From: a virus
Lineage: Duplodnaviria; Caudoviricetes
Virus record (IMG/VR): IMGVR_UViG_3300021964_007473
Span: 1-58,919 of that record
DNA: 58,919 nt
Strand: one strand, 5' to 3'
Below are positions 818 through 55,949 of this stretch, piece after piece; within the stretch, counting starts at the first letter, position 1, and each line of letters starts with the position of its first letter. The notes under the pieces were generated by a model that saw only the letters and a list, made by a program, of their open reading frames with translations, was not told the DNA's origin and searched no databases. Both the position numbers and the translations under genes were made by a program.

Positions 818-1846
818 ATGCTCAAGATGCCGATTGTGGCAGCAGCCGCTCCGCTTGTTGCGGGTGGAAGTAGCGCGGCTACCGGTGCTGCTGCTACCGG
901 TGCTGCTGCGGGCGCGACAGGATTAGCAGGTAAAGCCGCTACCGCTGCTGCAAGCCCGCAGGGTCAAGCCGCGATTGGTGCGACAACATCAGGCCTTGGT
1001 GCAATGATGGGCGGTGAAAAGCGCAAGGACCAACAGATTGCTGATGCGCAGCAGGCTGCTGAGCGGGCCAAGCAAGGTGCTGAGATTCAGACCGGCGAGC
1101 CAATGGACCTCGCATGGGATTTTTTGGCGTTGCTGAAAGCCCGACGGCACAATCAGCAGAAGGCCAAGGAAAAGCGGTACAAGCAGCAAGGCATGGTCAA
1201 GCCCATCGCTTCAACCATCAAGAAACCCGTGCAGGCCAAGAAGGACTACGAGCGCGAGTTTGAGATGATGGGCCGTGTCAAAGACGGTCCAAAGGACAAG
1301 AAAAACTTCCGCGAAGAAGAGCAGACCGACGAAGAGCGGCAAGCCGAGCGGGAAGTCAAGCAAAACATCGCTGCAACCAAGTTCAGCGGCCCAACCGTGC
1401 TGAGCAACGAAGAGCAGCGCGGCATGGGTGAGGCCATTGAAATGCAGCGGCAGCGGCTTGCTCAAGAGGCTGCACAAGTGCGCTCAGAAGCAGGTAGGCG
1501 TGCCCACGAAACAAGGTTGCTCAACGAGCAAAAGCGACAGGCGCAGGAAGAAGGCGACAAGCAGCGTGCCATGCGTAGCCTGCAAGGTCAGCCTCGACCG
1601 AGCGACCTGACCATTGAATCGCAGCCTCTTGTGCCCGGACACGATTACTTGGGACAGACGCACACCATTTCGTGCCCCGATACCGGTGAAGTCTTTTTGG
1701 AAAACAAGCAGATTGCAAACCCTCAGACCCACCCTTCCGTCCTTCAGCGTCAGTACGAACAACGTGTGTGGGACGAGATGAACGGTGCCGTGCAAACGGG
1801 GCACCCAATGGACCTCGCATGGCGCATGCTCAAGATGCTGAGGTGA
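818..1846 (+). CDS. Low-complexity/charged protein carrying two PMDLAWxxLK tags (putative internal head protein)
   Basis: Ala/Gly-rich N-terminus and charged coiled-coil middle. QTGEPMDLAWDFLALLKA at ~1088-1140 and QTGHPMDLAWRMLK at ~1793-1834. Confidence 0.7.
   Translation: MLKMPIVAAAAPLVAGGSSAATGAAATGAAAGATGLAGKAATAAASPQGQAAIGATTSGLGAMMGGEKRKDQQIADAQQAAERAKQGAEIQTGEPMDLAWDFLALLKARRHNQQKAKEKRYKQQGMVKPIASTIKKPVQAKKDYEREFEMMGRVKDGPKDKKNFREEEQTDEERQAEREVKQNIAATKFSGPTVLSNEEQRGMGEAIEMQRQRLAQEAAQVRSEAGRRAHETRLLNEQKRQAQEEGDKQRAMRSLQGQPRPSDLTIESQPLVPGHDYLGQTHTISCPDTGEVFLENKQIANPQTHPSVLQRQYEQRVWDEMNGAVQTGHPMDLAWRMLKMLR
878..907 (+). repeat. 15-bp coding tandem repeat x2 (GCTACCGGTGCTGCT; ATGAA)
   Basis: Read directly from the sequence. 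Confidence 0.9.
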
Positions 1847-1850
1847 AGTA

Positions 1851-3149
1851 TTGGACCCAATGGAGTCGGCATGGCGTTTGCTGAAGCGGCAAACGACCCT
1901 TACCGGCGACTTTGGGTTTCCTGAAAATCCACGCAACAGGTACAGGGGTGAGTACTTAGGCCCCATTCATGTTCCTACTGAATCACTTGAGATTCCGACC
2001 ATGGAAGAAGTGTACAACCAACCGCTTGACCCAAATTACACTCGACGTGATTTTCCGTTTGAATATGGAAACACCATTAAAGACATTCGTAACATTGCTG
2101 AGGCGAATGCTCAGGCTGATTTTGACCCAAACAGTACGCTTTGGGAAGCCGGTAGGCCAAGCCCGCCCAACGTGCGTTTTACCACGCAGATGACGCTACC
2201 GCAAATGATGCCGGGTTTAACCACCGAGCGGTGGCTTGACCCGCAGACCAACACCGTGATTCCCGGCTCTATTCCGCCCATCAACGCCTACCGTTACACA
2301 GGAGACATTGCACCGCGTGTCATGACCACGCCCGGTGGACAACTCATTCCGATGAGTGGACGAGAATATAGCGGTTCGTATGAGGAAGGTCAACGAAATC
2401 CTTTGCCGTACAAATATCGCTCGGAACATGGTATGCCCATGCAATTTTCTGCCCCGCCGTACGCACAAGAGATGCGTGGGATTAGTGCTGAAAATAGGCA
2501 CAATCTCTTTGGTATTCGCGGGCTTGGGCATTATCCTGAAGATTTAGTGCAAGAACGACCTCGGCACGGAGGGGGTGAAACTGCTGAATACGTTGCAATG
2601 ACACCCATTGACCGCACCCGTTTGACACCTATGCGTGCAAGTCATACACGGGAAAGCAACGAGCCTGATGCGACAAATTGGGAATTAAAATTGGATGATA
2701 GAGATTGGTTGATGAATCAAATGGAACCAAGAATGATTGAAGACAGGCTACGAAATCCAAATCCGCTTGATAGGTTGAATAACCCTTGGGATGATTACAA
2801 AGTCACCCCACATGAAGCCGCATGGCGAGAGTACGTTTCGCAATTTCCAATTTCAGCCATTCATCCTGCACTTGAAGGAGCGTACGACAGGGAAGGATTT
2901 CCCCTCCAACCCGGAGGTCGAGAAATGACCACCGAAGAAAAACTTGAATTGATTGATTACATGCGTGAACAGAAAGGCGGGCAAAAAACAATTCTGCCTC
3001 CCGGTCAATTGGTAACAGGCGAAATAAGTAGCAAAAGTCCACTTGGACTTATGAGGTACGGCTCGTTCCAACAAGGTTTAGACAAGTTGCCTCCTGAGAT
3101 GAAACAGTCCGCGATTGAGGCACTCAAGTACTACCGGCGTTCGTATTGA
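1851..3149 (+). CDS. Tagged protein (N-terminal DPMESAWRLLK) with possible ADP-ribosyltransferase-like domain
   Basis: TTG start after GAGGTGA. The body is more AT-rich than the core genes. Motif order AYRY...QFS...LFGI...AEYVAMTPIDRTRL resembles the R-S-E ART strands (weak). Confidence 0.6.
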   Translation: MDPMESAWRLLKRQTTLTGDFGFPENPRNRYRGEYLGPIHVPTESLEIPTMEEVYNQPLDPNYTRRDFPFEYGNTIKDIRNIAEANAQADFDPNSTLWEAGRPSPPNVRFTTQMTLPQMMPGLTTERWLDPQTNTVIPGSIPPINAYRYTGDIAPRVMTTPGGQLIPMSGREYSGSYEEGQRNPLPYKYRSEHGMPMQFSAPPYAQEMRGISAENRHNLFGIRGLGHYPEDLVQERPRHGGGETAEYVAMTPIDRTRLTPMRASHTRESNEPDATNWELKLDDRDWLMNQMEPRMIEDRLRNPNPLDRLNNPWDDYKVTPHEAAWREYVSQFPISAIHPALEGAYDREGFPLQPGGREMTTEEKLELIDYMREQKGGQKTILPPGQLVTGEISSKSPLGLMRYGSFQQGLDKLPPEMKQSAIEALKYYRRSY

Positions 3150-3159
3150 TGGTGATTTC

Positions 3160-4371
3160 ATGCCTACTTTTAGTGAACGTCTTGCTGAATCAGCACAGAC
3201 ACCACTTACCCCTCAGGAACACATTGACCGTTTGAACGCACTTATCGAGGCTACGGTAAATCAAAATAAATACTCGTTGAAACCGGAAGACGGAATGTAC
3301 GAAGATAGAAACGGTCAAAAAATACCAATGGAAGATGTTGCAGCCATTTTTGACCCTTTGGTGACCACGCCGGAAAGTGAAACGGTACTTCCATCGCAGC
3401 AAGCACTTCGTGAACATACTCAAGCGATGAAAAATTGGCGTGCTACGCTTGATGCTTTGCAAAACGCAGATTACAGTTCAGATGTAGCCCAAAGAGAATC
3501 TGAATTGCGAGACTCAAACAAAACACAATACCGTGATGCATTGCTACAAGCGTTACAGAATCTCTCGTCTAAACACCTTGGTGGAGAAATGGCGCAAGAA
3601 GTAACGAGACAACTTCCTTATCACAATAGTCTTGCAACTCCGTATGATGCTCACGGTGCATATAGTACACCGCTTGCTGCTTTGAACCGCGTTTCACGTA
3701 GGATTCTTACAAGTAATTTGATGCCTGCTTTAGTTGGAAGACCTTCAATGTCCTTGCCAACAGTAAAAGATAATGAATTGAAGGATTTGTTGCACAATTT
3801 GAGGCGAAAAACCGGAGTAAGCGGTACCGACATGTCATTTAGGGCACCTCACCCCCCACCGCAGGACGAACTTCAACAGATTTTGCAGTATGCGCGTGAC
3901 CCTACCGCTCCTGCGCAAGAGCAGGCTAACCTCAGCACGGCAAACATGTACGACGTTCATCCTATGCATTACGACCAATTCACCCAACTTGTGCAGGGCG
4001 GTATGCATCCTGCCATGGCTGCAAAGCAAGTGGGTCAGGGCTTTGACATGTCGCAACCGCAGTTTGGCGACATTCAGATGAGCGCAAGTCCGATGGACTT
4101 GGCCTTCCGTCTGCTCAAGGAGCGCAAGTCGCCTGAAGCCATGCGGCACAAGTTGGAATACGACAAGGAGTACGAATCTTCCCCTGAGCGCGTCAAGTAC
4201 CGTGAAGAACTGAACCGCGAGCGTCGTCGCCGTGGAATCTATGGAAGTCACGACCACAAAGACGTGAGCCACACCCAAGGTAACAAACTGACCCTTGAAA
4301 GTGAACACGACAACCGTGCCCGCCATTTCAAGAATCGTGGTACGTTGAGGCAGATTGACGAAATGGAGTAG
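3160..4371 (+). CDS. Tagged protein with AT-rich N-terminal domain and C-terminal HNH-like basic domain
   Basis: ATG at 3160 after GGTGA. SPMDLAFRLLK at ~4087-4119 is followed by YREELNRERRRRGIYG...DVSH...ESEHDNRARH, which resembles small phage HNH-type (beta-beta-alpha-Me) domains. Confidence 0.6.
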   Translation: MPTFSERLAESAQTPLTPQEHIDRLNALIEATVNQNKYSLKPEDGMYEDRNGQKIPMEDVAAIFDPLVTTPESETVLPSQQALREHTQAMKNWRATLDALQNADYSSDVAQRESELRDSNKTQYRDALLQALQNLSSKHLGGEMAQEVTRQLPYHNSLATPYDAHGAYSTPLAALNRVSRRILTSNLMPALVGRPSMSLPTVKDNELKDLLHNLRRKTGVSGTDMSFRAPHPPPQDELQQILQYARDPTAPAQEQANLSTANMYDVHPMHYDQFTQLVQGGMHPAMAAKQVGQGFDMSQPQFGDIQMSASPMDLAFRLLKERKSPEAMRHKLEYDKEYESSPERVKYREELNRERRRRGIYGSHDHKDVSHTQGNKLTLESEHDNRARHFKNRGTLRQIDEME

Positions 4372-4546: not shown

Positions 4547-4547
4547 A

Positions 4548-8817: not shown

Positions 8818-10106
8818 TGCCGATGATGGGACGCGGCTCGGACACTCGCATGTACTCGCCGCGTAGCGAGTCCGACAAGATGTACTCGTCGGCCAACGAG
8901 GACGAGGACAAGTACTCGCCCACGTCCCCGGAGGACATGGAACGCCGCCGTGAAGAGCGGAAGAAGCGTGAAGAAGAGCGCAAGGACAAGCGCAGTAAAA
9001 TCAAGCACATCAAGGTCAGCGCAAAGTTGCCCCTTGAAGGTGCTGAATCCTCAATGGGTGAGGACGACGGCAACAAGCAGGACTTGGAACGGGAACTTGG
9101 TTTGCAAGGTGGGCCTGCGGGTAGTCGAGGCCACATGCTTGACATGGCTACGGGGGCCAAGACGGGTACCGGTAGTGCAATGACCGGTCCTGTTCCGCTC
9201 TTCATGAGTGAACCAATGGAAGATGCTTGGTCCACGTTGCTGAAGCGTGAAACACCCGGTACCATCGAAGCCCGTCGTCGCCGTGAAGCGCGGCGCGAGT
9301 TCCGCCCATCCACAGGACAATTCAAGCGGCCACCCGGCGGCATGGACCCAAGCGGTGCTACCATGCGGCGTTTTCGCGCCCGTATGCGTGGTATCAAGGG
9401 TGGAAAGAAAACGGGGCTGATGAAACCCCACCTGTCTGTGGAGATGAGTCACCGTGGCATTGCGACGAAGCAACCCATGTCGAAAGACCCGCAAAAGTAC
9501 CGACAGTACATGGGCCAATCTGAGGCTCGCAAGATTCTTGGCAATGTACGCACGACCTTCTCGCCCCACGCCCGCTACGCCGAGCGAGGCAGTTACGCCG
9601 GACCCACCGGAGCAGGAAGGCTCAGCGGACTCTTGCCCGGACAGTCAGGGCAAATGAGGCAACCTGCGCTGCGCTCAATGCGTGTGCGCCGACCCCGTAT
9701 GCCTCGGATGCCTCGCCCACCGATGCCACCCATGCCGCCGATGATGCCTTCACCGCAATCGTCCATGGTCCCCGGCATCCCATCTGCTCCTTCTGCTCCC
9801 TCGTCCATCATGATGAGCGAAGAGCGTGCTGAGAGTGAGATGCTCAAAGGCCGCGCTGCCCGCACGACTGAGCGACTCAACATCATGCGCCGTATCATGG
9901 CAGCGTTGGAGCGTGCCAACAAGTTGCAAAAAGCGGGTACGCGCAGCGCAATGGAGAACGGTCACGTTCCTGCTCACCCTGCCGGTGTGAGTCCCAAAGA
10001 CGAGTCGGACCCTGAAGGGCCGACGGAAAACGACGAGACTGACGCGAAGCAGTTCGGTCTTGACCCGGCGGGTTACCTCGTCTCACAACGGGGGCATATG
10101 GGATGA
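8814..10106 (+). CDS. Highly basic, Pro/Met-rich tagged protein (putative internal head/DNA-binding protein)
   Basis: SEPMEDAWSTLLKRE at ~9207-9250 followed by an Arg-rich domain. Also contains MLKG and LQKA sites. Confidence 0.7.
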   Translation: MMPMMGRGSDTRMYSPRSESDKMYSSANEDEDKYSPTSPEDMERRREERKKREEERKDKRSKIKHIKVSAKLPLEGAESSMGEDDGNKQDLERELGLQGGPAGSRGHMLDMATGAKTGTGSAMTGPVPLFMSEPMEDAWSTLLKRETPGTIEARRRREARREFRPSTGQFKRPPGGMDPSGATMRRFRARMRGIKGGKKTGLMKPHLSVEMSHRGIATKQPMSKDPQKYRQYMGQSEARKILGNVRTTFSPHARYAERGSYAGPTGAGRLSGLLPGQSGQMRQPALRSMRVRRPRMPRMPRPPMPPMPPMMPSPQSSMVPGIPSAPSAPSSIMMSEERAESEMLKGRAARTTERLNIMRRIMAALERANKLQKAGTRSAMENGHVPAHPAGVSPKDESDPEGPTENDETDAKQFGLDPAGYLVSQRGHMG

Positions 10107-12251: not shown

Positions 12252-12983
12252 ATGAAGCCCGTACTCGTTCGTAAATCTGAAACTGCGTTGCAGCAGGTAC
12301 CAAGTGGCGGTTTGCAGTTGGTGGTTGGTGGCAAAGGCCCATCAATTCGTGAACTTGCGGGCATGGCTTTTGGCCGAAAAACAGGTCAGAAAGGGCAAGG
12401 ATGGCAAAGACTTGGTGCTATTGCTGATTTGGCAGGTCGCGGTCTTTCTGCTGCGGCTACCACGCAACAAATTGCAGACCAAATGCAAGGGGGCAACCTC
12501 GCTGCTCCTATGGGTGCGTACGCACAATACCTTGCAAACCAACCGTGGCAATTCATTGAAAGGCAAAAAGAAACACAACCTCAAACTCAATCTTCGCCCA
12601 CTCAGCAGCAATCCCCACAAATGCAGTCTGTTGCACCGGGTTCAACTGCTCCTGATGGCTCCGCACTACCACCGGAGCAAATGATGCTACCGGGTATGGA
12701 GCAACCTCAGCAACCTCAGCAACCTGTGCAGCAACCTGTGCAGCAACCTGTGCAGCAACCTGTGCAACCTGTTCCTCCTGAAGAAGCAGCAGCGGCCATG
12801 ACAGGACAACCTGTTCAACAGTCTGCTGCTGCTCAGCCTGCTGCTCAACCTGCTGCTCAGCCTGTTAACCCTGCACTTGCAGCAGAACAACTCCGAGCGC
12901 AAGGACAAACCGGTTTATTCACCTATTCTGCTGAGCCGTTTGAACATGCGATGGACTACTTGCTCAAGAGGTTGAGCCGATGA
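12252..12983 (+). CDS. Gln/Pro-rich protein with C-terminal tag (EPFEHAMDYLLKR)
   Basis: GAGGTGA SD, N-terminal VLVRKS, and QPVQ and AAQP repeats. Confidence 0.75.
   Translation: MKPVLVRKSETALQQVPSGGLQLVVGGKGPSIRELAGMAFGRKTGQKGQGWQRLGAIADLAGRGLSAAATTQQIADQMQGGNLAAPMGAYAQYLANQPWQFIERQKETQPQTQSSPTQQQSPQMQSVAPGSTAPDGSALPPEQMMLPGMEQPQQPQQPVQQPVQQPVQQPVQPVPPEEAAAAMTGQPVQQSAAAQPAAQPAAQPVNPALAAEQLRAQGQTGLFTYSAEPFEHAMDYLLKRLSR
12701..12773 (+). repeat. Coding tandem repeats (9-bp QQP and 12-bp QQPV units)
   Basis: GCAACCTCA and GCAACCTGTGCA units read directly. An AAQP x3 repeat follows at ~12828-12863. Confidence 0.9.
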
Positions 12984-14467: not shown

Positions 14468-14520
14468 ATTACCCGTTCGCTGAGTGGGGTTTTTAACCAA
14501 TGGTCAAGTGAGTGGTCATT

Positions 14521-18886: not shown

Positions 18887-18897
18887 GGGGTGGTCTT

Positions 18898-21800
18898 GTG
18901 TCCTACGAGCAGTTCGACCATGCGACGGTCAACCTGCTTAAGTCGCTGAGCGACGGGCTTGATTTGGAAGAAGCCGCTGCTGAGTACATCATTGCATGGG
19001 ACTCGTTGCAGAAAGCCCCATCCGGTGATGCATCTTACGTGCTGCTTAAGCGCGAGGCTGAAAACATCATTGAAGGGAAGAAGCGGGCAAGTGCTGATGC
19101 ATACCTGCTTGGGTTTGACCCGGTGGGTGAGCCAAGCCTGCACCCGTGGTACGAAGGGCTACAATCGGTAAGCGACCACAAACACGGACACGCCTTTTGG
19201 CCGACGTACAACGCACCTGTTGGTGCGCCCTACCAAAACGAAAACTTCCCCTTCCATCCTATGCATCATCCGCTGCTGCGTCAGCATGCGGTAAGCGGTA
19301 AGCCTGCATTCGTCGAGGGTCTGCGAAAGTTCGTTCTTGGAAAAGGTGGACACGCACAAGAAGAGAAAGAGATGGAGCAGGCTTGGCTTGCTGAGTTGGC
19401 GGGAGAAAAACACCCTGTCACCCACGGCTACAAGCCTGACCCAAAGGACCCCACCCGTACGATTCCAATTGTCGGGAACCTGAACGAAGGCATGTCGGAT
19501 GATGCGAAACATCAGGTTGACCTGTATGAACGGGACTTCAGGCGTTGGATGAAAGCCAATCCTGAGCGTGAGGACTATTGGCGCACGCATCAGGCTGAGA
19601 TGGTCAAACGTGGGTACCAAACAATTGACGATGCTTTGCGCAACGAGCATTTCGATTCACGCTCAAACGAATGGATGAGCGAAGACTACGCCGAAGACCC
19701 ATATGCAGGTGTGTCTGTACCTGAAGGGCTTGGGCACATGGGCTACATGCTTGGTCTTGAGTGGTTCAGCCCTCAAGAGCGACAGGTGGTGATGGACGCC
19801 ATCAACGAAGGTACGGTTGGTACTGAACATAGCAAGAACATCACGCTGCCTGACGGGACCAAGGTTCCCACGGCTCGATTCATTCACAACATGTTGTACC
19901 GCATGACTCCTGAAATGGATTGGGCAACCCGTAAGCCCAAGCACTTTGGTCGCAACGCTGCTATGCGCCTTGAGAACAACGACACCGACTACGCTCAAGG
20001 TGAAGAAGGTCGCTTCCTTCAGTCTGCTTTGGGCAAACTCAGCCACTACTCTCGTCTAACAGACTTGGGTGGAGACACCCTCTTCGGTGCAATTCGTGAC
20101 AAGATTCACGACCTTCATGGTATTGACCCTGAAGACGATGAAACGGCTGAGGTTTTGGAAAACCTACCTCGGTTTGAAATCGGTAAGAATCAACATCTGC
20201 TCAACGGCAAGATGGATTGGAACGATGTGGTCGAAGGTTCATGGGGGCACTTTAAGGGCAAGAAGCGCGAACCTGAGAAAGTACGCATGACCATGGACGA
20301 CCTGTGGTTTTTGTCAGGCTACGACCCAAACACAAAGCAGGTGATGCCTGACCACCCCATTTACGGTTCTCAAAACGTGGATGAACCGTTCATCAACCGT
20401 GATACGTTGGAGGCCATGGAAAAGGAAGCAGGTAAGCACAAGGGGCTTGAGCAGCAAGCAAAGTCCATTCGTAATCATCTTGGTTTCCTCAAGAACTCAT
20501 TTGGTCCCTCACCTGACGACAAGAACATACCCTCGTATTGGAAGTTTCATCCAAGTGGTTATTCCTACGGTCCGGGTCGCTTTTGGTCCCAATCCTTTGA
20601 CAATGTTGGTGGGCAGGGTATGTCCCTACCTACCTACCTCGACGTGGTGCATTCACCGCACGCTGACGAACAAGGCAATTCGTTCATGCTGATGGGTGAA
20701 AGTCAATCTCAGCAGAACATGCCAAACATGGCAAACCATCGCCTCATCAATCACTTCCTTCCTGAAGTAACACAGGCCCGTGGTGAGTACGAGGTGATGG
20801 GTGACGAAGGGAAGGTGACCGGTCGCTTTGTCCGCCATACCCCTGCGTTGTTGATGCAGAACGTCCTCTCACCTACCAACGTCACCCGTGTGTTGGGTGG
20901 ACGAGAAGGCTCGACGTTCAAGAACAATCACACCGATTTCAAACACTCCTTCTCACCGTTGTACGAACGTACCCTTCGTGACTTCAATGACCGTGGTGCC
21001 AACATTTCATCGGTTTTGCCCGCAGGTCTGAAGACGATGGATTCTCGGTTGAGTCACAATCAATTCCTTCGCCTTAACCCTGAATCAATGTACGGTGCTA
21101 CTCCCGGTGAGTTCACAATGGCAAAGGATGCACACCGACAAGCATTCGGTCTTGGACACATTTTCCATCCGAGCCAACCTTCAACCAAGAGTGTGCTTAG
21201 CCATCGTGACTTAGTAAATGGGGCACCGTTCACGGCAGGTGAATCCCCTGAAGACTTTGAGAGCATCATGGGATGGGGTGGCATCAAGTCGCCAACCCTT
21301 CAACGTCTCAAGCAGCGTATCATTGAGTTTCCATCGGATGCTGAAGCGGTGCAGACCGTTTCCATGGTGGCACGCATGCTCAACACGGACAAACCGCGTG
21401 ACGTGTGGAACTACTTGTCTGAGGGCGATTACAAAGAACTTGAGAACTACTACAACGAAGCACGTGGTGGCGGCTTCTCTTCTGAGCAAATCAACAAGTT
21501 GGTTGAAGATGCCAAGGCGGTTATCCCCGCTTGGTCCGAGGTCGCTCGCCAAAGCCTGTCTTCACAGAAAGGTGCGGTCAAGGATTCACCTGTTCGTGGT
21601 GTTGAACACATGCTCGGTATGGGCGGTGCAATGCCTGCTCTTCAAGAAGAGCAGCGTTTGCAGGATGAAGTCGAATACTTGCAGAACCGGCTGATTGAGC
21701 CAACTGAAGAAGACGACGTTGACCTGCTGCGTCAGCAGTATGAGGATGCGAAGCAGCAACTCATTCAGTTGCAGATTGGCGCACAGTCGAAAGCACTTGG

Positions 21801-24642: not shown

Positions 24643-24660
24643 TAGGGCTTTATGTACCAT
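24643..24660 (+). promoter_or_regulatory. Putative TATA-box promoter for protease/capsid operon
   Basis: CTTTATGTA ~25-30 nt upstream of ATG 24680, in a short intergenic gap. Confidence 0.45.
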
Positions 24661-24679
24661 AACGTAGGATGGGGAGGCA

Positions 24680-26053: not shown

Positions 26054-26080
26054 GGAAATCAAACAAAAGGAGTGAATGAA

Positions 26081-27208
26081 ATGGCACGAGACTACATTAG
26101 GACAATTACCGACATGGAGCGGTACTTCTATGGCGCGGGTAACGCCATGGGGTACTCCTACTCCGGCAGCGAACTCTTGAAGGCTGACGCACCAATGCTC
26201 TCCACCACGGCGGGCATCTATCAGGCCATCTATGGCCGCAAGGTGTGGAGCCAACTCAACCAAGAGTTCAACGCCTTCTCCATCCTCCCCAAGCGACCTT
26301 GGGAGCGCAGCGGGTGGCGCGTCATCACGGAGCGTCCCTCCTTCGCCGTCGGAGGTGGCCTCGCGGAGAACTCGACCCTCCCCGACACCACCAAGCCGAC
26401 CTTCCAACACATCGCTGCGAAGCCCAAGACCATCGCGCACACCTTCGACATGTCGGAGACGGCGATGTTCCTTGCTGACAAGGACGACGGCCTCGGTGAC
26501 ATCCGAGCCGTGCTGAAGGAAGAGATGGGTAAGCACCACGCAGAACACATCAACAAGATGCTCACCGAGGACGTGACGACCGTTGCCGGGAACGACTTTG
26601 AGTCGCTCGACCGTGTGACCGTCGGCAACAACTCGATGGTTGCGGCTACCCACTACGACGCGGGTGACGAAGACATGTACTCGATTGACCGCAGCGCGAA
26701 CTCGTGGTCCTTCGCTGAGGACTCCGCGTCCGCGACCGCGACCGACCGTGTTCTGTCCCTCGACCACCTCGATGAAATCTTCCGCCTGACGTGGGAGCGC
26801 GGTGGCAACCCCAAGGTCATCCTGACGGGCTACGACACCCTCATGCGCTTGCAGCAACTCTTGCAGTCGCAGCAGCGGTTCCTTGAGGAAAAGCGTGTCA
26901 CCCCCACCTACAACGGTGTGAAGGGTGTGCCCGGTATCGAAGCCGGTTTCATCGTGGCGACCTACAACGGTATTCCCATCATCCCCTCCAAGGACGTTGC
27001 GAAGGACACCCTGTCCCGCATGTACTTCCTCGACACGGACTACCTGTACTTCTCCACCGCCATCCCGACTCAGTACTTTGAGTCCGGCATCGAGACGGGC
27101 GACCCCTTCGCCATCAACAGGCTCGGTCAGGAAGGCATGTACCGCACCATGGGTGAGTTGTGGACCACTTTCTTCGGTGGTCACGCTTCCATCCGTGACC
27201 TGAAGTGA
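26081..27208 (+). CDS. Major capsid protein (HK97 fold)
   Basis: Follows the protease, has the strongest C-ending codon bias in the window and a GGAGTGA SD. HK97-like segments: GGLAENSTLP, PKTIAHTFDMSE, YNGIPIIPS, MYFLDTD. Confidence 0.92.
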   Translation: MARDYIRTITDMERYFYGAGNAMGYSYSGSELLKADAPMLSTTAGIYQAIYGRKVWSQLNQEFNAFSILPKRPWERSGWRVITERPSFAVGGGLAENSTLPDTTKPTFQHIAAKPKTIAHTFDMSETAMFLADKDDGLGDIRAVLKEEMGKHHAEHINKMLTEDVTTVAGNDFESLDRVTVGNNSMVAATHYDAGDEDMYSIDRSANSWSFAEDSASATATDRVLSLDHLDEIFRLTWERGGNPKVILTGYDTLMRLQQLLQSQQRFLEEKRVTPTYNGVKGVPGIEAGFIVATYNGIPIIPSKDVAKDTLSRMYFLDTDYLYFSTAIPTQYFESGIETGDPFAINRLGQEGMYRTMGELWTTFFGGHASIRDLK

Positions 27209-27248
27209 GGTCCTTTGGAGACAAACTGAAAACAAGGAGTGATTTGAA

Positions 27249-28875: not shown

Positions 28876-28880
28876 ATAAA

Positions 28881-29765
28881 ATGACGTATGTACTTGTCAA
28901 AGCAAGTGAAATGACGCCTCAGCGTCAGAAAGTGTACTACAACATTCCGAGTGGACGCCACGCCGGTATGGGGCCACACCCCCTTTCCCGTGTTGCCAAC
29001 AAACTTGCTTACCCTCAGTTGCGTGAGATGGGTTGGACGAACCAAGCCGACCCGAAGTACGGTCCTACCGCTGAGCGTCTTCGTGACCTCATCATGATGC
29101 AGATGCTCGCCAACCCTGAGATGCACGACCTTGAGTTTCAAGGCGAGCCTATGGCAATCAACCCTGAAATGCAAGCAGCAATGCAGGGTATGTCCCTTGA
29201 GGACATTTTCTCTCAAATCCCCGCTCCCGGTGAAGAACATGCAGGATTCATGACCCCGCGTCAGCAGCGAGATGCTGAGCGTGCTAACCTCATGCGCACC
29301 GGTACGAAGCAGGTGCAGACCCTTGCGGGTAAGGCAGGTCAGTCGCAGAAGTTGCAGGCCATGCAGGACCGTGCGCAGGCCAAGAACGCTGAGTCGTTTG
29401 GCTTCCCCATGCCTGAAGAAGCGCAGGGGTTGTTTGACGAAGAAGGCAAGTTGAATACGTCAATGCCTGCACCTGACATGTCGGCATCGGCTCGCGCTGC
29501 TTCTGAGGCTGCTCCTGAGGCTGCTCCTGAGGCTGCTCCTGAGGCTCCCGCTGCTGACCCGGTGAAGGAGATGCTTTCCACGCTCAGCGCAGACCAACTG
29601 CGACAACTCTTGGCTGCAAGCGGCCTTTCGATGCCTCAGTCTGCCGCCCCTCAGTTGCGCGACCCCGGTGAGGGTGGTAGCGAAGACATGTTTGGCAAGG
29701 CTTCTCGACAGTTCCGCGCTCACCGTGCGGCGTTTGGTGACGCTTGGAGCCTGATGAAATACTGA
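28881..29765 (+). CDS. Tagged protein (N-terminal VLVKA, C-terminal AFGDAWSLMK)
   Basis: Met/Gln/Ala-rich, with an EAAP repeat and a degenerate tag at the C-terminus. Confidence 0.7.
   Translation: MTYVLVKASEMTPQRQKVYYNIPSGRHAGMGPHPLSRVANKLAYPQLREMGWTNQADPKYGPTAERLRDLIMMQMLANPEMHDLEFQGEPMAINPEMQAAMQGMSLEDIFSQIPAPGEEHAGFMTPRQQRDAERANLMRTGTKQVQTLAGKAGQSQKLQAMQDRAQAKNAESFGFPMPEEAQGLFDEEGKLNTSMPAPDMSASARAASEAAPEAAPEAAPEAPAADPVKEMLSTLSADQLRQLLAASGLSMPQSAAPQLRDPGEGGSEDMFGKASRQFRAHRAAFGDAWSLMKY
29505..29546 (+). repeat. 12-bp coding tandem repeat GAGGCTGCTCCT x3.5 (EAAP)
   Basis: Read directly from the sequence. Confidence 0.9.
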
Positions 29766-46300: not shown

Positions 46301-49300
46301 CACCCAACGGCTCGCTACGACGATGCACGCAATAGCGTCACCAACCACACCACCTACGTCATCTATGGACCGGGCCAAGCATTCCCCTTCACCGAAACAA
46401 CCGCTGCTGACGCAGACGTTGAGCCGCACCCCGGTTTTGTCGTGACGGTGGGTAACACATGGAGCAAGGTGCCGCATAGCAAGCAACTGCCCAACCCAAT
46501 TACCAACGATAGGAACGACTACGGCCCACCGACTTCAACCTACCAAAGCAACCGTCAACGTCACCATTGGTACACAACGTGGAATTGGAGTCCCGCTGAA
46601 GGCATCCCTCACGTTGGCGCGGTGTCGAGCGGAGTCAGCCTGTGGCAGCGGCCCGAGCATGGCTACCACTTCGGTGAACACTTCAACCTGCAAGCCACGG
46701 TGTCTTCGCTCAACATTAGCGACTATGCTGCTGCCCACCCCTACAAGCACGCACCCATCGTCGGCTACGGCATTGCTTCGCAGGCTGACTTGACGTTCCA
46801 CATGGACGGCGGCTACCATCCGGGCGGTTCATGGCTTGACAATCAACTCTCATTCAACGCACCCCTTGAGCCAAGCGACTATCGCGTGGCCCGTGATTCG
46901 TGGAACGAGGTCAACCCAACCGCATTCCGTGTTTCAGGTGTCCTTGCAAAGCAGGTTCTCGCGGGTGCATCTGCTGAAGAGGGCGACGACTTCGACCGTG
47001 AAATCATCGTCGTGGATGCTACGCGGTGTCAGAACGGTGAGGAACTCGCAGCCCTGCTTGGACAGGCCATCAACGAGAACCCCGGCAAGGGTGCGCTCAA
47101 GGCCATGGGCGGTACGCACCTTCCTTCGATGGGCAGCGCGATGCGGCAGGACCGCTACGGTTGGGTCGAACTTGACTTCAGCAACTATACTCCTGACATA
47201 TCCAAATCGTACTCTTACGTTGAGGCTACCCTTTCAGGTGGTACGCAAACCATCTTGGAACAGTTGCCTGCGTCGGGATGGATTCGTACAGACAATGCAG
47301 GCCGTACGCTTCACACGGTTGACTTGCCTGCTTTTGCACCTTACCATAGCCGCGAAGTGTACGACAATAGCGGTACGTGGACTGTACGTTTTTGGCTTGC
47401 ACCAAATCGTTTGTTTGGCTATCCTGCATTTGAAGATGCACAGTCTTTTGATGACTTCACTCTTCCTACTCCGGCCAACCTAAGTGGCATCACAAAGGTG
47501 TACGTGTGGAGCAAAGCCGGTGTTCATCGCTTCAACAACGAGGACGACGCTACGCGCAACCACATGACGCAGGTTCACTTTGCAGGCATCGTGGACGCCA
47601 TTGACCGCACTCGCCCTGTGGGTGCGGTTGGATGGGCAGGTGAGCGTTACTCGTACCTCAACTCCCTCAAGGTAGGCACGGAAGGCTACGGTGCAGGTCG
47701 TGGCGCGTGGCATCCAAAGTTGGGCTTCTCTCCCTACGGCTCGGCCTCAACGGTCATGACCGCGTACGGACACGTACCGCACACGTATGCATTGTACAAT
47801 ACTCCTGAATCACTCGTCTATGCAAACTATGACGGCGTGGGTACACCCTACGGTTCATGGACTGTTGAAACCGCATATGCATCTATTTCATACACAACCA
47901 ACAACGCAGACACCGCTACTGCATACAAGGCGGCGGATAGTGCCATCAACCTCACAAACAGTCTGACTGACTTTAGCATCCCGCGTGAGTTGTACCACCC
48001 GCAGGGTGTCTTCTCCAAGGGCTTCCTCGTTGTTTCCTATGAGAGTGAATTGGCATTGGTCGCCAAGTACGACCGCGACGGCATCACGGCAACCGGTGAT
48101 TGGCTTGCAGTTGTCTCCAAAACCCGTGCGGGTACGGCTGCTTCGACGGCCATTACGTTCGCAGGTACAGCGCAATGGGACGAGCGGATTCACGGTCCTG
48201 AGCGGTTCTATGCCCCTGCGACGGGTGGCCCGAACGTCGAGGCCCTGATTGTCAGCGGCACGGCGACACCGGCAAGTGCGGCTACCGACGACCCTGAAAT
48301 TACTCAGTACACCCTTCATACGGCGGCTACCAATGACAACGACCTCGACAATGCAACACCCGCATTCGCGCAAATTGGTGACCTGTTCTTCGACTTGGAC
48401 AAGAGCGTAGGCTCCTACCTACTGAACGACGCAAGTGAGGTTGAGCGTAACCTGATGGTGGACATGCGCACCGCAGGTGGGGGTACCGACTTCAACGCAA
48501 AGCACGATGACCTCCGCTATTGGCTTGCACAAACCAACGGCTACGAATCGCTTGCCCGCACACCAATGCGCAACTTCAGCGTCGAGCATGTCGTGTGGAA
48601 GCGAATGGACGGCGGCAACTTGTCGCTGCCTGCCTTGAACGCTCGCGGTCTTGGCGGTGTACCCTTCGTCACTCGCGTCAGCGGTGGTACTGCCTACACC
48701 ACGGGTGAGAAGTTGTACGGCAACGTGCGCTTCTCCTTTGAGACGACCAACTCGGCCATGTTCCCAATTATCCAAGCGCAAGAGTTGGCTCACCCGCAGA
48801 TTGCTGCTCGCCACCCCGACGAGTTGCGCAACGTGCTGATGGTTCCCAACGAAGAGATTCAGTTTGATTCAATTGAGGTTGAAGACGACACCGGCCAAAT
48901 CCACACCATCGAGGGCGGCTCGCCGTTCGGTACCATTGTTCGGGCCTTCCGAAAGTTGTCTAACCGCACCTCAGAAGGGCTTGCCCCTGCAATTGCAGGC
49001 AGCGGCGTGGAGCCGAACCTGAAGGTGCGCCTGCCCGACCCCAACTCAATTCCCGGCAACATCATCGTGCGCTCAGGGTTCGACCGACTGCAAGCCTATC
49101 AGACTGAAACAATGGGCAGCGGTGGCATGATGCGACCCGACCTTGCTGACGCACTCAAGCACCAATTCACCGATGAAGTCGTTGGTCCCCGACAAGGACC
49201 AACGTATAGCGACTACGAATGGGACCACATCAGTCAGTCTGCAAGCGGTGAGGCGTTTCCCGACATGACGCGCAAGGGGTGGAGTGCAGCAACGGGCAAC

Positions 49301-52300
49301 GCCCCGCTTGAATCGTCCTACGAGTTGCACGACCGCACACTCTTCTTCCATGTGACGAAGTGCGGAAACACGCACACGCACCGCTATCCGACGCACTACA
49401 CGCATGCAAACGGTGTGCAGAACAACGACCTCTCGGCCACAGGATTCTCGTCCGGTACGCTGAGCGTTGATGCGACGATTGATGCCGCCCTGTACCCCAC
49501 GACCTTCGGGAACCAAGAGGCTGCGGACAACCGCCGCTTTTTGCGTCTGTACGATGCTGCTACCGACCGAGGTGGTGTGGCCTCATTCACGGGCATCAGC
49601 GGTGACACGTTCACCGGCTGCGTCGGTGATGCTGAGTTTGATACCTTGGTTGCTAACGGCGTGAGTGGCCTCAAGGTCGTGCCTTCCTACTACATGCCTG
49701 CGGGTAGCACACGCTTCTATGCAGCACGCCGTCTGCGTGACCACGCTGAAGTCAGCGGCAACAGTCCTGACATGATGCACACGTTGTACTACACCAATGT
49801 GGACGCAGACACAACCGCACATAGCATCTTTTCCAAGCCTGTGTTGACGCCAATGGCCCTGCCACGTATGGGTCACCACTACGTCACGCCGACCATGGCT
49901 ATGCTGCCCGGACATTGGGCACATCCTGCCTACCAAGGTCTGTACGACAAACATCGTGCAATTCGTGCGTCCTCGCACAAGTACGTGGAACAGTCGCTTA
50001 TGGAGTCACTTGGATTCGATGAAGTCAAGAGTGACATTACTACGACGACCACGAACCAATTCTTCGGTCTTGACCCACAACTGCGAATTGGTTCGCTGAC
50101 TGCCACACCGGGAGGACCAAGCGACATTCACGGTGGTGCGTTCACGCTGATGTTTGAAACGAAGGTGCGTAGTGACGGCTACGGTGTACTCGCATCCGAA
50201 GGATATGCGGGTAACATCAACAAAGCCGGAGGACACACCATCGTCCTTGAAGGTGCGGCGACGTATTCGCTTGAGCATCACTTCCCTGACCCTGCCGAGG
50301 TTGGTGCGTATCAAATTGTCATTCAGCCAAACTTGAACAAGTCGCAGTTCATTGGTTATCACGAAAATGCAGCAAATGAATTGACAAGCCAACAAGTTGC
50401 TCTTGTAGTAGCAAAACGAGATTACACTTCAGACGTAGGAGGGTGTACGCTTGTGCTTGCACAGGCCACCGACGCTGACGTGCGTGGTTGTGAAATCTTC
50501 ATCAACGAAGTGATGATTGACCACGACCCCGACCACGGTAGCCAATTCACCAACATTCCACCGTTGCTTTTGTACAACTCATTCGGCGTACAGGAAACCG
50601 AAGCACCTGCGTTCACGCGCATGAGTCTGCCCTATCATCCCGGCATGTTTGCTGACGCAACACCGGGCTTCACCACCAACATTCCGTGGTGGAGTATTGT
50701 ACACAATCAAGACCCTACGCATTCCGAATCTGCCGGTTTCCGTCATTTGACGTGGCACCGCTTTGACAACTACTACGAGTTTGCGCGGGCAAACGCGGGC
50801 AACGTGGCTTCTCAAATTACACTTGCGGGCTATCCAAGCAGCGCACCGGACGTTTATTCAGACTTGTACAACCTCATCAGTCTCAACCCTGTTGCTACTG
50901 TTGAGAGTGTGTCAGCAGGTGTGGTTGTTGTTGACGATGCTCGCGGCTTCCCTGAGTACCCCTACTACGGTCAGAAATTGGAGTACACCGATGCAAACGG
51001 TGTACGTCGTACAACTGAATACACGGATGCTATTGCAGGCTCCGCACAACGCACCATCAATCATCCCGTTAATGCTGACTTTACCAACAATTTGACGGCA
51101 GGCACAAAGTTGCGTCTTACCCGTGCGTACGATTTCCGCCCGTCAGGAGCCATCTTTACCGACTCCAAGACAAGCATCATCACGCGCATGCTACCTCAGA
51201 CCTTGCAAGGTAGCCGTGATACGAATAGCCTGCACTTGGCTGATGCATTCCTGTGCATGTGGCATCCGAACCTTGGGCGACCGTACACGTTTTACTCAGA
51301 TTCAGCCCGCACGTTCCTCAACCCGTTGACTGACCGGGCGGTGGACAACAAGCCGTACAACTCAATGCCTGAGCATTTTGAGACAATTCACTACCACGAC
51401 GCACCGTACTTCGGTAGCGTTGGACCCTTTGGGTTGGCTATCAAGACACCTGCGCCGCCAACAAACATTCCCGCCGGTAATTTTGGTGAAAGCAAACGTA
51501 CGGTAGCATCTCACGTAGTTGCTACCAAAACAATCACCACTACGCCATTTACAGGGTTACTTTTCCAACTTTCCGCAGGTGACGTAATCAGCATTGAATC
51601 GAGACAGTACACGGTTGTGTCGGATAACGGTTCAGACATTGTAGTGGACCAAGTTTTGCCTGTTGAAATTACAGTTGGTGCGTTCGTGTACGAAGGAGCA
51701 GATGGCTCAATGAAAACGGGCGAAGAGATGGACCTGCTGCCTTACCTGACTCATCAGGGTGGACAATCTGATTCGGCTGACGATGCTACGAAAGTAATGC
51801 TCAACAACTTGTGGCCGAGCGGTAGTCGTGGCGGTCCTCTCATCAGTTGTCTTGATGGGTACGGCGCAGTATCGTCTTCATGGAGTTACTCAGGATTGTA
51901 CGGCTATGACCGGTACGCTTGGAAAGATGCTGATATGGTGTCTTGGAGTTCATACGCGGTGAGTAGCGGCATTACAACTGAATTATATTCAACCACTCCA
52001 CCGTTGAATAGCAAGCCACTTCCATTTGGCTACCGCTTTGGTCTGCGTCAACCCTACAACAAACCCCAATGGTCCTTCTATGGAATGCGTGCGTACCGTG
52101 CGGGTAGTCCGTACTACACCGCTGATTACCAACATGGCCCATTGGTGCAACGAGAAACGGGTGCTTGGGGTCATGATACGTTGGCTGATGAAGTGTACCC
52201 GGAAACCTACGTGGGTGTCATGGAGCGGCAGACCAACTTCAGCGGCATGCTTGGCGTGGACATGGCTGAGCGGCAGGTTCGGTATAGCGACGGCATGCGT

Positions 52301-53974: not shown

Positions 53975-54135
53975 CACCTATGGACGAATCTTGGGCAGTT
54001 CTGAAGGAACTGTGCGAAGCGGGCAAGAAGGCCGCTAAGCGGAAGTTCAAGGTGTACCCTTCCGCGTACGCGAACGGTTGGGCCGTGCAGTACTGTCAAG
54101 GCAAGTTCCGCAAGAAGAAGGGGGACAAGAAGTGA
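53971..54135 (+). CDS. 54-aa basic tagged protein absent from the ORF track (MTPMDESWAVLKELCEAGKKAAKRKFKVYPSAYANGWAVQYCQGKFRKKKGDKK)
   Basis: ATG overlaps the stop of the giant gene (ATGA). Carries the tag at its N-terminus. Confidence 0.8.
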   Translation: MTPMDESWAVLKELCEAGKKAAKRKFKVYPSAYANGWAVQYCQGKFRKKKGDKK

Positions 54136-54293
54136 AACTGAAGAAGGACAAATGCTGCTGCGGGGCGACAAAGAAAACGCCCTGCGTTTGCATGTATGAG
54201 GGCAACCAATGCTCCGATAGTCCCCCTCGTTGTCCTTGTTACGCTTTACTTCATCGGCAAAAGAACCTCAAGAAAATGGTCGGGGTGTATTGA
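54132..54293 (+). CDS. 53-aa Cys-rich basic protein
   Basis: GTG overlaps the previous stop. CCCG...CVC...C...CPC. Confidence 0.65.
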   Translation: MKLKKDKCCCGATKKTPCVCMYEGNQCSDSPPRCPCYALLHRQKNLKKMVGVY

Positions 54294-54619
54294 TGGGTGA
54301 CCGCTGCACTTGCCACGATGTGCTTGTCATCAAGGACTTGCGCCGTTGGTTCAAGGAGAAGTGGGTGGACGTTAGCCGCAAGGACAAGGACGGGAAACAC
54401 CCGCCCTGTGGTCGCTCCAAGGCAAGCAAGAGCAGCAAGGGCTACCCCAAGTGTCGCCCATCGGTCAAGGTCAGTTCCAAGACACCCCGTACATCAGGCT
54501 CGATGAGCGAGGGTGAAAAGCAGGCAGCCACCAAGCGGAAGCGAGCGAAGAAGCAAGGTGTTGGTGGGAAGCCTACCATTGTCAAAGGTGACTTGAAAAA
54601 CTACGTAGGAGTGCGTTAA
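54293..54619 (+). CDS. Small basic viral protein (LRRWFKEKWVDV...PCGR...YPKCRP)
   Basis: ATG overlaps the previous stop. The motif is of a type common in marine phage hypothetical proteins. Confidence 0.75.
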   Translation: MGDRCTCHDVLVIKDLRRWFKEKWVDVSRKDKDGKHPPCGRSKASKSSKGYPKCRPSVKVSSKTPRTSGSMSEGEKQAATKRKRAKKQGVGGKPTIVKGDLKNYVGVR

Positions 54620-54621
54620 AC

Positions 54622-55128
54622 ATGGCAAAGGACAAACCTGAGGGCAAGAAAGGCATGGTCGTGGTCATTGCCCTTGGTAAGCCCAAGAAGGAAGAGAAGG
54701 TCGAAAAGAGCGACGTACTCGTAAAGCGTCGAATGATTGGCGTGCAACAAGGCATGGCGACTTGTACCAACCCGAACTGCTTGGCTCAGACTCCCGCGAC
54801 CGCAGGTGCGTGTCAGACGTGCGGCTCGCCGCTTAGCATGCAGAAGGCCGAGCGTGACCCACGGCTCGCTCGCGCAGGCGTGAGTGGCTTCAACAAGCCC
54901 AAGCGCACGCCCAACCACCCGAAGAAGAGCCATGTCGTCGTGGCCCGTGAAGGTGGGAAGGTCAAGACCATTCGCTTCGGTCAGCAGGGTGTCTCCGGCT
55001 CTCCGAAGAAGCAAGGCGAGTCCAAATCCTATCGCAAGCGTCGTGAGTCGTTCAAGGCCCGCCACGCCAAGAACATCAACCGTGGCAAACTGAGTGCGGC
55101 GTATTGGGCTGACAAAGTGAAGTGGTGA
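54622..55128 (+). CDS. Basic protein with Zn ribbon and KTIRFGQQG...SFKARH...SAAYWA domain
   Basis: CTNPNC...CQTC, then MQKA, then a Lys/Arg-rich domain common in marine phages. Confidence 0.75.
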   Translation: MAKDKPEGKKGMVVVIALGKPKKEEKVEKSDVLVKRRMIGVQQGMATCTNPNCLAQTPATAGACQTCGSPLSMQKAERDPRLARAGVSGFNKPKRTPNHPKKSHVVVAREGGKVKTIRFGQQGVSGSPKKQGESKSYRKRRESFKARHAKNINRGKLSAAYWADKVKW

Positions 55129-55133
55129 GTAGC

Positions 55134-55949
55134 ATGCCGTTTGTCAGTCAGGCTCAACGGCGTTATATGCACGCCAAAGAACCTGAGTTGGCTGAAGAGT
55201 ACGAGAGCAAGACACCCAAAGGCAAGAAGTTGCCTGAGCGGGTGCAGAAGGCCCCGTCACCCATGGACCTCGCTTGGGCATACTTGCTTAAGCAGGTGCC
55301 ACCTTTGGCTGATTGGAGCGGTGAAGACCTTGCCGCACTTCGATGGATTCCACAACGACGTACATCAACGTACCATCAGGCTCGGCCAATCATCGGTGAA
55401 AAGATAGGGCAACCTCTCCAATTTGAATACCAAATGAGACAATACGGTAGGGAAGCACTTCCCGGCGTGTTTGCTCCGAAAATTGACACAGTAAGCGGTA
55501 CATGGGTATCACCTGCTGATGCCATGGCACTCGCTAATCCTGACATTACATCACGGTATTCTGAACCTCACACCTTGCTTGGGATTACTGAAAGCCCGCA
55601 GTATTGGCGAGCCAACCTTTTGCACGGCTATCCTGAAGGTTTTCAGTACGGTGGATATGACCCTGAACAGTTCGTGAATATCCCACTTCCGAACATGTTT
55701 GGTGAGCGTGTGCGTACCCCTGCTCAGATGCAGGATTTTGCATTGGATGCTTTGCAATCACACGATGCCGAAGGAGAGCAGAAGGCCGATTGGTTTGCTG
55801 ATTTGGGGATGCAACCTGAAATCCGTGATGCACGGTGGGTACAGGAAAGAGGTAAGCCTGCAACCCTTGATGAGTTGGTTGAGCAAGGACTTGTGGGAGT
55901 TCTGCCGCCACTCCCACCGACTGACGTAAGGCGACCACCGGGGTTTTGA
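55134..55949 (+). CDS. Tagged protein (SPMDLAWAYLLKQ) with possible ART-like cargo domain
   Basis: N-terminal MPFVSQAQRRYMHA module, then the tag at ~55257-55295, then an AT-richer domain with LRW...GTWVS...LLGI...EGFQYGGYDPEQF. Confidence 0.65.
   Translation: MPFVSQAQRRYMHAKEPELAEEYESKTPKGKKLPERVQKAPSPMDLAWAYLLKQVPPLADWSGEDLAALRWIPQRRTSTYHQARPIIGEKIGQPLQFEYQMRQYGREALPGVFAPKIDTVSGTWVSPADAMALANPDITSRYSEPHTLLGITESPQYWRANLLHGYPEGFQYGGYDPEQFVNIPLPNMFGERVRTPAQMQDFALDALQSHDAEGEQKADWFADLGMQPEIRDARWVQERGKPATLDELVEQGLVGVLPPLPPTDVRRPPGF

Follow-up and report, generated by a model that had tools for sequence, protein, structure and literature searches.

The window analysed here is the whole of IMG/VR record IMGVR_UViG_3300021964_007473 (58,919 nucleotides), an entire 58.9-kb viral contig in which essentially all real genes lie on the + strand. 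Several of its proteins carry a short peptide, P-M-[DE]-x-A-W-x-L-L-K, hereafter the tag, for which the original prediction had listed ten copies. Six-frame translation was used to locate this peptide in the window and placed it at nucleotides 1100, 1805, 1857, 4090, 9213, 12936, 53977 and 55260, always on the + strand, in the frame of long open reading frames (ORFs) and 3-6 nucleotides from the positions first given. These eight copies are solid; the remaining two in the original list are, respectively, degenerate and unsupported. The features bearing on the tag are as follows, with profile scores in bits.

818..4371, + strand: three adjacent ORFs (818-1846, 1851-3149 and 3115-4371) that jointly match a single tagged polyprotein of relatives, with common first and last modules
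1100..1138, + strand: internal tag of irregular 13-residue form, PMDLAWDFLALLK, in ORF 818-1846 (21.0 bits)
1805..1834, + strand: C-terminal tag PMDLAWRMLK, three residues ahead of the stop of ORF 818-1846 (16.8 bits)
1857..1886, + strand: N-terminal tag PMESAWRLLK of ORF 1851-3149, followed by a degenerate RQTTL leader (17.0 bits)
4090..4119, + strand: internal tag PMDLAFRLLK in ORF 3115-4371, immediately before its phrog_6437 end module (28.2 bits)
9213..9245, + strand: internal tag of 11-residue form, PMEDAWSTLLK, before a very basic region of ORF 8814-10106 (32.9 bits)
12936..12968, + strand: variant C-terminal tag PFEHAMDYLLK of ORF 12252-12983 (29.6 bits; this copy is among the profile seeds)
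18910..18942, + strand: doubtful look-alike QFDHATVNLLK at the N-terminus of a 1919-residue ORF, not counted as a tag
29730..29759, + strand: degenerate C-terminal tag AFGDAWSLMK (AFGDAWSLMKY and stop) of ORF 28872-29765 (5.4 bits, within noise)
53977..54006, + strand: N-terminal tag M-T-PMDESWAVLK of the 54-residue ORF 53971-54135, before a module matching the N-terminal half of DUF5872 and phrog_27331
55260..55292, + strand: internal tag PMDLAWAYLLK in ORF 55122-55949 (31.8 bits)

The copy at 29730 is taken to be a degenerate member of the set because the orthologues of ORF 28872-29765 have clearer versions (TPFNDAWSLMK and similar, 8.9-12.3 bits). The look-alike near 18907 is not supported as a tag, since it matches no profile and is missing in two of four orthologues. 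The copy at 53977 scores 4.4 bits with the internal-type profile and is the top window match, at 24.8 bits, of an independent N-terminal profile made from 50 N-terminal copies with the window and its nearest relative excluded. The DUF5872 domain that follows this tag is split over two ORFs, with its N-terminal part (a faint match) in the 54-residue tagged ORF and its C-terminal part (E 5.6e-11) in a 129-residue ORF at 54230-54619; a 71-residue ORF lies between the two. The ORF ending in the variant C-terminal tag, 12252-12983, stands directly upstream of the large terminase gene.

With a strict pattern, P[MF][DE]x[AS][WFM]x2-3[LM]K, run on the six frames and on the + strand gene set, the window presented seven matches, against a mean of 0.002 (maximum 1) in 1000 residue shuffles and of 0.005 (maximum 1) in 200 base shuffles. 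An internal-type profile built from 17 copies and scanned, redundant rows included, against the window, four relatives and 80 loci with major capsid protein (MCP) genes reached 8 bits or more at 37 places on the + strand and nowhere on the - strand. The same kind of scan detected no copy in the window ORFs for terminase, portal, protease, capsid, tube-like protein and tape measure, nor in an ORF of 5529 residues, which agrees with the original reading that terminase, tail tube, tape measure and giant protein lack the peptide. Once the tags are masked, the nine tagged window proteins show no common sequence (best pairwise E 0.8).

The codons used in the tag indicate that selection acts on the peptide, because all the degenerate codon positions vary, as had been proposed for the synonymous sites of the window copies. 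Across 172 distinct DNA contexts, Pro is encoded by CCA (87), CCG (36) or CCT (35), Asp by GAC (75) or GAT (53), Lys by AAA (109) or AAG (63), Ala by four codons and Leu by six. This variation largely refutes an explanation at the nucleic-acid level, in which the tag would be a recombination or translation signal and the peptide its by-product. Such an element would fit the gain and loss of modules exactly at tags, as in the closest relative, which has an extra module and tag inside its orthologue of ORF 3115-4371, and it would also fit the ATG and TGG codons, which are fixed by the code, and the preference for GCT among Ala codons (111 of 159). The copies, however, lie in one reading frame of coding strands, as the 37 to 0 distribution illustrates, and the conservative replacements observed (M/F, D/E and W/F/M/Y) follow an amino-acid logic, making this explanation very improbable.

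Internal copies of the tag conform to the consensus [I/K/F/V]-Q-[T/A/K/M]-[G/S]-E-P-M-D-[I/L]-A-W-[R/Q]-L-L-K and N-terminal copies to M-[T/N/S/K/L]-P-[M/F]-[D/E]-x-A-W-x-L-L-K. The P, M, A, L, L and K positions are each at least 89% conserved and the flanks are free, while the W is present in 96% of 56 N-terminal and 67% of 122 internal distinct contexts, the N-terminal copies being the best conserved. Six of the ten positions are hydrophobic, among them 2, 5, 6 and 9. The peptide would hence form a portable amphipathic helix of roughly three turns with 2, 5, 6 and 9 on one face, and the Pro and Asp/Glu residues fit the start of such a helix. In an AlphaFold2 model of a tagged 140-residue protein (24-row alignment, mean pLDDT, the model's confidence score, of 68.5), the tag is a helix spanning residues 3-14, followed by a low-confidence linker up to residue 30 and by a domain from residue 31.

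Many tags have another conserved stretch, RQTTLGEFHPDxPSPxGP, immediately after them (window 1887-1940; 3806-3859 in locus L136). It is invariant in 24 aligned proteins resembling ADP-ribosyltransferases (ARTs), occurs also inside polyproteins, and has as its window counterpart the degenerate RQTTLTGDFGFPENP.

A degenerate DNA pattern for P-M-D-x-A-W-x-L-L-K returned 98 IMG/VR stretches, 80 of which were analysed (loci L101-L180). These 80 loci presented 219 profile matches at 10 bits or more, and 78 of them have at least one non-tag protein in common with the window. Pooling the window with its relatives yielded 241 tags in 180 ORFs, of which 72 are N-terminal, 22 C-terminal (with one to eight residues after the K) and 147 internal, with up to eight tags per ORF and 61 inter-tag gaps of median length 132 residues (range 62-383). 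The 72 N-terminal copies open small ORFs straight after Met-x, with a ribosome-site-like signal upstream. The placement at N-termini, C-termini and junctions anticipated by the original prediction was thus borne out, and the peptide it described is real; its scale, put at about nine proteins and without mention of polyproteins, was missed.

When 5.8 billion proteins were searched with profiles of natural 44-residue stretches around the tag, 595 of them matched at E of 10 or less. The best 120 of these 595 (E of 1e-22 or less, 386-1866 residues) come from marine metagenomes, many on contigs of about 100 kb; all are named only as hypothetical proteins, and nine of the 120 have a precomputed Pfam family. 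Fifteen polyproteins taken from this set contain two to nine tags each; proteins of this kind reach 1866 residues and nine copies. The tag profile matched five of five close relatives, with 3-10 matches each, and none of five contigs whose MCPs belong to a family about 45% identical; one of these five contigs has terminal repeats and a length of 47.6 kb. The haloarchaeal virus HVTV-1, of which 100 of 102 kb were scanned, has no tag (best score 4.0 bits). Prokaryotic genomes totalling 596 Gb contained 13 matches to the DNA pattern, against about 17 expected by chance under equal base frequencies; a single one of the 13 belongs to a genuine tagged ORF, and its contig resembles a mis-binned virus. 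In these comparisons the tag is restricted to one clade of magroviruses and missing from the cellular genomes searched. Host mimicry by the exact motif was considered and rejected, the number of matches in prokaryotic genomes being close to that expected by chance.

The sequences between tags define a broad set of modules. Three hundred modules of at least 45 residues fall into 125 clusters, nearly all unannotated and with the tag as their sole common element, which upholds the view that one peptide under protein-level selection marks otherwise unrelated, exchangeable proteins. The 120 module representatives matched 6 Pfam families and 22 from PHROGs, each through a single member and mostly without assigned function. 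The tagged proteins of the window matched nothing in Pfam and PHROGs beyond phrog_6437, phrog_27331 and the faint DUF5872, and the protein Atlas provided nothing usable for ORFs 1851-3149 and 55122-55949.

Those modules that can be read are effector-like. One presents an ART-like fold in Foldseek searches, with matches to Tpt1/KptA, PARP and Arr (best E 7.5e-4); one match is at E of 0.001 or less, but the list of matches is consistent. For this protein 35 homologues were found and 23 aligned, all 23 of which keep the tag. Another module is an HD phosphohydrolase (phrog_990, E 2e-36), and a GNAT module exceeds the Pfam cut-off in two of eight polyproteins. Zinc ribbons, DUF5872 and DUF6321 were also detected, together with HExxH peptidase-like modules in 7 of the 180 tagged ORFs, 3 of the 37 multi-tag ORFs and no real window gene. 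A match to S-adenosylmethionine lyase in one polyprotein (16.6 bits against a cut-off of 28) is a lead only.

The polyproteins resemble beads on a string, in which tags are regular separators and one stands before each module. Of 23 clusters with at least three members, seven contain a module found both as a standalone tagged protein and within a polyprotein. The three ORFs at 818-4371 illustrate this relationship: they open with a Gly/Ala-rich module and close with phrog_6437, and both modules hold the same places in a single polyprotein of a relative (P0003). Because these ORFs amount to the polyprotein of the relative split at tag boundaries, gene fission and fusion take place at tags. The phrog_6437 end module recurs in several other polyproteins. 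It is small and basic (window 4120-4368), and has untagged homologues in marine cyanopodoviruses (Syn5 gp50) and Flavobacterium phages. In two cyanopodoviruses inspected, the untagged homologue comes right after the annotated small terminase gene, and in P-SSP10 (1459-1728 of locus L213) it is followed by an HNH gene, a transaldolase gene and the large terminase gene.

Taken as a whole, these features suggest that the tag is an address or docking peptide, and not a mere linker, because ten nearly fixed residues with helical periodicity are borne by more than 100 unrelated modules, conservation is strongest in standalone N-terminal tags, and the tag is detached from its domain in the model. The conservation of individual residues can likewise be argued to reflect specific recognition instead of bulk chemistry. 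An amphipathic helix with six hydrophobic positions might also work as a self-associating sticker or structural helix, with tags binding each other or capping their modules to form an assembly or condensate that needs no separate receptor. Many tagged proteins would suit this role, being multivalent with up to nine tags, and several are of low complexity. The detachment of the modelled tag speaks against capping, the 125 unrelated module clusters cannot all need one capping helix, and the strict identity of P, D, W and K exceeds what a hydrophobic sticker requires, so we consider this explanation quite improbable.

Profile searches identified the head and tail genes of the virus, which are listed below with the large ORFs among them.

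12980-14467, + strand: large terminase
14512-15819: HNH-containing 435-residue ORF between terminase and portal, placed likewise in HVTV-1
15816-17567: portal
18883-24642: 1919-residue ORF between portal and protease
24680-26053, + strand: S78 prohead protease (HK97-family; PF04586/PF14550) with a long, helical, charged C-terminal extension that is scaffold-like
26072-27208, + strand: MCP, adjoined by the protease gene
26171..26182, + strand: E34-L-L-K37 of the MCP, candidate maturation site at the end of a variable N-terminal stretch and before a conserved ADAP
32189-34045: tube-like protein
35169-36227: tape measure
37385-53974: 5529-residue ORF after the tape-measure region

The MCP of the window shares 34-36% identity with its counterparts in the haloarchaeal siphoviruses HVTV-1, HCTV-1 and HCTV-5, and IMG/VR contains hundreds of its close relatives, a pattern of kinship like that described for magroviruses in the available text of PMC5434244. 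On these sequence matches the virus is a tailed archaeal virus of magrovirus type, and its prohead protease belongs to the HK97 family (S78), in keeping with the archaeal tailed virus and the protease at 24680 originally proposed. Homologues of the 5529-residue ORF are present in 20 of the 80 tag loci. For the 1919-residue ORF the sole match is a weak ATP-dependent DNA ligase domain at residues 1516-1597, below cut-off; its position is the slot taken in haloviruses by head-assembly and zeta-toxin-like giants. The portal has a zinc-ribbon-like stretch at residues 85-104, under the Pfam cut-offs. An ORF at 1-792, cut by the contig end, encodes an HMGL-like domain (pyruvate carboxyltransferase / HMG-CoA lyase type; E 3.8e-15) with homologues in 14 of the 80 tag-bearing loci; according to the available text of the 2017 paper on magroviruses, its authors saw no auxiliary metabolic genes. 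On the - strand, an antisense open frame of 911 codons (24650-27385) spans the genes for protease and capsid; this frame, almost certainly an artefact of sequence composition, misleads gene calling by longest ORF.

An alignment of 108 MCP homologues revealed an N-terminus that varies in sequence and in length (16-108 residues), in which the variable part ends with [LIVF] (72%), any residue and [K/R] (85%), and is followed by the conserved A-D-A-P-[VLI]-[LI]-T-[TS]-T-T. In the clade of the window all 35 distinct N-terminal variants of the MCP read ELLK/ADAP, the slash marking the boundary, and the MCP of HVTV-1 aligns there with MSK/AD. In the model of the window MCP the residues before K37 are of low confidence or disordered; a search of sequences in the PDB returned no solved structure matching this protein. 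The likely boundary of the MCP propeptide in this alignment is hence ELLK/ADAP, and the L-L-K that ends the tag is the same L-L-K, with positions P3 to P1 in common if the putative MCP site is correct. Among relatives at least 70% identical, the protease itself has four conserved sites of hydrophobic-Lys type, L13..K15/G, ILK168/ED, TLK257/S and K400/S. The second is invariant among these relatives and lies exactly at the junction of the S78 domain with an acidic linker; the scaffold seems to be fused to the protease, and ILK168 may be a self-cleavage site that frees the scaffold domain. Because the tag and the MCP boundary both end in LLK and the protease has its own ILK/ED, the S78 protease is a reasonable candidate to cut after the LLK of each tag.

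These observations bear on whether the tag could be a processing signal only, that is, a cleavage site for the prohead protease or another protease in polyproteins, with no addressing role. The regular spacing of up to nine copies, each before a module, and the existence of the same modules as separate genes are what such a signal would produce, as is the identity of LLK with the likely MCP site; the polyvalent proteins of phages are, in the available text of PMC5512222, thought to be processed by built-in peptidases. However, cutting at the 72 N-terminal copies on single-module ORFs and the 22 C-terminal ones would free few residues, the N-terminal copies are those best conserved (W 96%), and ten residues with helical periodicity are more than a cleavage site requires. 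The HExxH modules, in 3 of the 37 multi-tag ORFs and no real window gene, offer little as built-in peptidases, and zincin modules were rejected on the same counts as a general processing enzyme. Processing without addressing therefore appears improbable.

The explanation that we favour, with a probability of roughly 40%, is that exchangeable effector modules are loaded into the procapsid by means of the tag, a portable docking peptide that is perhaps cut after LLK. Under this hypothesis the tag would be the address for one common partner and would mark a large, fast-shuffling repertoire of small accessory modules, encoded as separate genes or as polyprotein strings. The most likely destination would be the assembling procapsid, where the tag would bind the scaffold or protease or the inner surface of the capsid, so that the modules would be packed in the capsid for later delivery alongside the DNA. 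The S78 prohead protease, the probable trimmer of the MCP after ELLK, might also cut the LLK of the tag and thereby separate the beads. Delivery by the capsid is suggested because a common address on diverse effector-like enzymes resembles known delivery systems, and by analogy with the T4 internal proteins and P1 DarB the procapsid would be the obvious destination in a tailed virus.

The gene context of the tag is compatible with such a role. In the 43 loci with a homologue of a structural gene of the window, all 73 tags lie on the strand of that gene and none on the opposite strand, and no tags occur in the replication blocks that two long relatives carry on their minus strands (28 and 73 crude ORFs). 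Of the controls that the original prediction had put forward, shuffled sequence confirms the peptide itself, and the replication blocks are consistent, indirectly, with its proposed role; the interpretation as a whole is supported in part.

One close relative (G001, 92% MCP identity) encodes on its minus strand a thermosome subunit, a family B polymerase, a clamp-loader-like ATPase and a PD-(D/E)XK nuclease. The thermosome subunit is a full-length group II chaperonin (Cpn60_TCP1, E 3.6e-126; 579-2075 of locus L084, - strand) in the replication block. Its presence there fits a different partner for the tag: for example a viral chaperonin, a host complex targeted by effectors, or a membrane or secretion site. 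All the evidence for a docking peptide fits such a hub equally well. The spacing M-x3-W-x2-L, moreover, is typical of helices that dock in a hydrophobic groove, as in p53-MDM2, and the N-terminus of T4 gp23 targets fusion proteins to GroEL (available text of PMC3012670). Against a chaperonin, the available text of PMC5434244 records chaperonins in 12 of 26 magroviruses, of two unrelated kinds, while the tag is nearly invariant. Diverse enzymes would rarely need one common host target, the chance-level occurrence of the motif in cellular genomes argues against mimicry of an identical host motif, and the match of LLK to the MCP boundary would be left unexplained. We therefore regard a hub other than the procapsid as rather unlikely.

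Several points weigh against loading into the procapsid. The tagged proteins have no match in Pfam and PHROGs to families known in virions, and large proteins expected as head cargo, the 1919-residue ORF between portal and protease and the 5529-residue ORF, have no tag. The module repertoire is very large for a single capsid. Tags occur on both strands in 5 of the 80 loci, and co-orientation on a strand does not equal timing. The evidence for cleavage after Lys is an alignment, and docking and cleavage are not needed together, because cutting would remove N-terminal tags once loading is complete and would bring no benefit to C-terminal ones. Finally, the [G/S]-E ahead of the helix is conserved in internal copies only, a feature with no certain explanation.

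Known systems offer partial parallels for loading into the procapsid. The capsid targeting sequence of phage T4 is removed by its prohead protease, and the T4 protein Alt is an ADP-ribosyltransferase, as one of the tagged modules here appears to be. According to the available text of PMC3012670, the T4 internal proteins are diverse defence proteins with this targeting sequence as their only common part, and that of PMC9024508 reports that the 30 N-terminal residues of P1 DarB are sufficient for its encapsidation and that the signal is portable to foreign proteins. Like these signals, the tag is a short peptide that constitutes the only common part of hypervariable accessory proteins, here in 125 module clusters. 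The T4 and P1 signals are N-terminal only, however, whereas the tag is N-terminal in 72 of 241 copies, C-terminal in 22 and internal in 147, with up to nine per protein; T4 uses the gp21 protease, whereas here the host is an archaeon and the protease of S78 (HK97) type. The likeness is one of layout, not of sequence comparison, and encapsidation of the tagged proteins is putative. In HK97, gp4 removes about 104 N-terminal residues of the MCP (available text of PMC9024508). Here too the S78 protease gene adjoins the MCP gene and the variable N-terminal stretch of the MCP ends at a conserved Lys, but that stretch has 37 residues, the scaffold is seemingly fused to the protease and the cut site is putative.

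Cargo peptides of encapsulins and bacterial microcompartments are short, often amphipathic terminal helices on flexible linkers that dock enzymes inside a shell, and encapsulin shells have the HK97 fold. The modelled tag has the same arrangement (helix 3-14, linker, domain from 31) and the capsid of the window the same fold; the cargo peptides, however, have other sequences and one or few cargoes, as opposed to more than 100 module families here, where binding to the MCP is putative.

Along with the phage capsid targeting sequences, the closest parallel in logic is offered by the polyvalent proteins of phages and conjugative elements, described by Iyer et al. 2017 (PMC5512222, available text) as unrelated small domains (ART, GNAT, HD, zincin-like) in one polypeptide, with rapid domain shuffling, and proposed to be effectors delivered with DNA whose domains are released by proteolysis. 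Their definition by 2-15 unrelated domains also describes the polyproteins reported here, which have 2-9 tags and GNAT, HD, HExxH and ART-like modules. None of the Pfam families that are signatures of polyvalent proteins (LPD, MuF, MPTase and others) was detected in 120 modules or eight polyproteins. Two further differences are that the tag is a conserved peptide between domains, of a kind that the available text of PMC5512222 does not describe (the word "linker" is absent from it), and that the tagged modules also exist as tagged single genes.

In the library searched, no publication contains the core strings of the tag, and the main texts of PMC5434244 and PMC11706807, their supplements lying outside the search, present no shared peptide motif or polyprotein, "motif" in PMC11706807 referring only to a helix-turn-helix. 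The only prior trace of the tag found is phrog_9713 (PHROGs v4), a profile of 23 positions with no annotation that aligns to tags in four of eight polyproteins scanned (for instance at residues 836-846 of P0004, E 1.8e-8 for the whole protein) and matches no single window protein at E 0.01.

In its fullest form, the hypothesis would describe a clade of ocean archaeal viruses with a single ten-residue zip code, by which more than 100 exchangeable effector modules, made as tagged mini-genes or as polyproteins cut by the prohead protease at every tag, are loaded into the capsid and co-injected; this broader picture is possible, if doubtful. Although host and virus are uncultured, peptides together with recombinant scaffold, protease and MCP make the hypothesis testable. 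A capsid-loading role, if real, would make the tag the first signal of its kind in an archaeal virus and would mean that a single peptide can act at both protein termini as well as between domains; the ten residues would then also provide a means of directing proteins into shells of HK97 type. In the surface ocean, magroviruses rank among the most abundant viruses (PMC5434244, available text), and most of their genes are dark matter; the tag provides a searchable handle on one class of these genes, with 595 public proteins at E of 10 or less. It groups these genes as one functional set, probably effectors of host takeover or anti-defence, which, if the capsid-loading hypothesis is true, would make up a plug-and-play system of cargo for which archaeal viruses offer no described counterpart, with a layout broader than that of the T4 and P1 signals.

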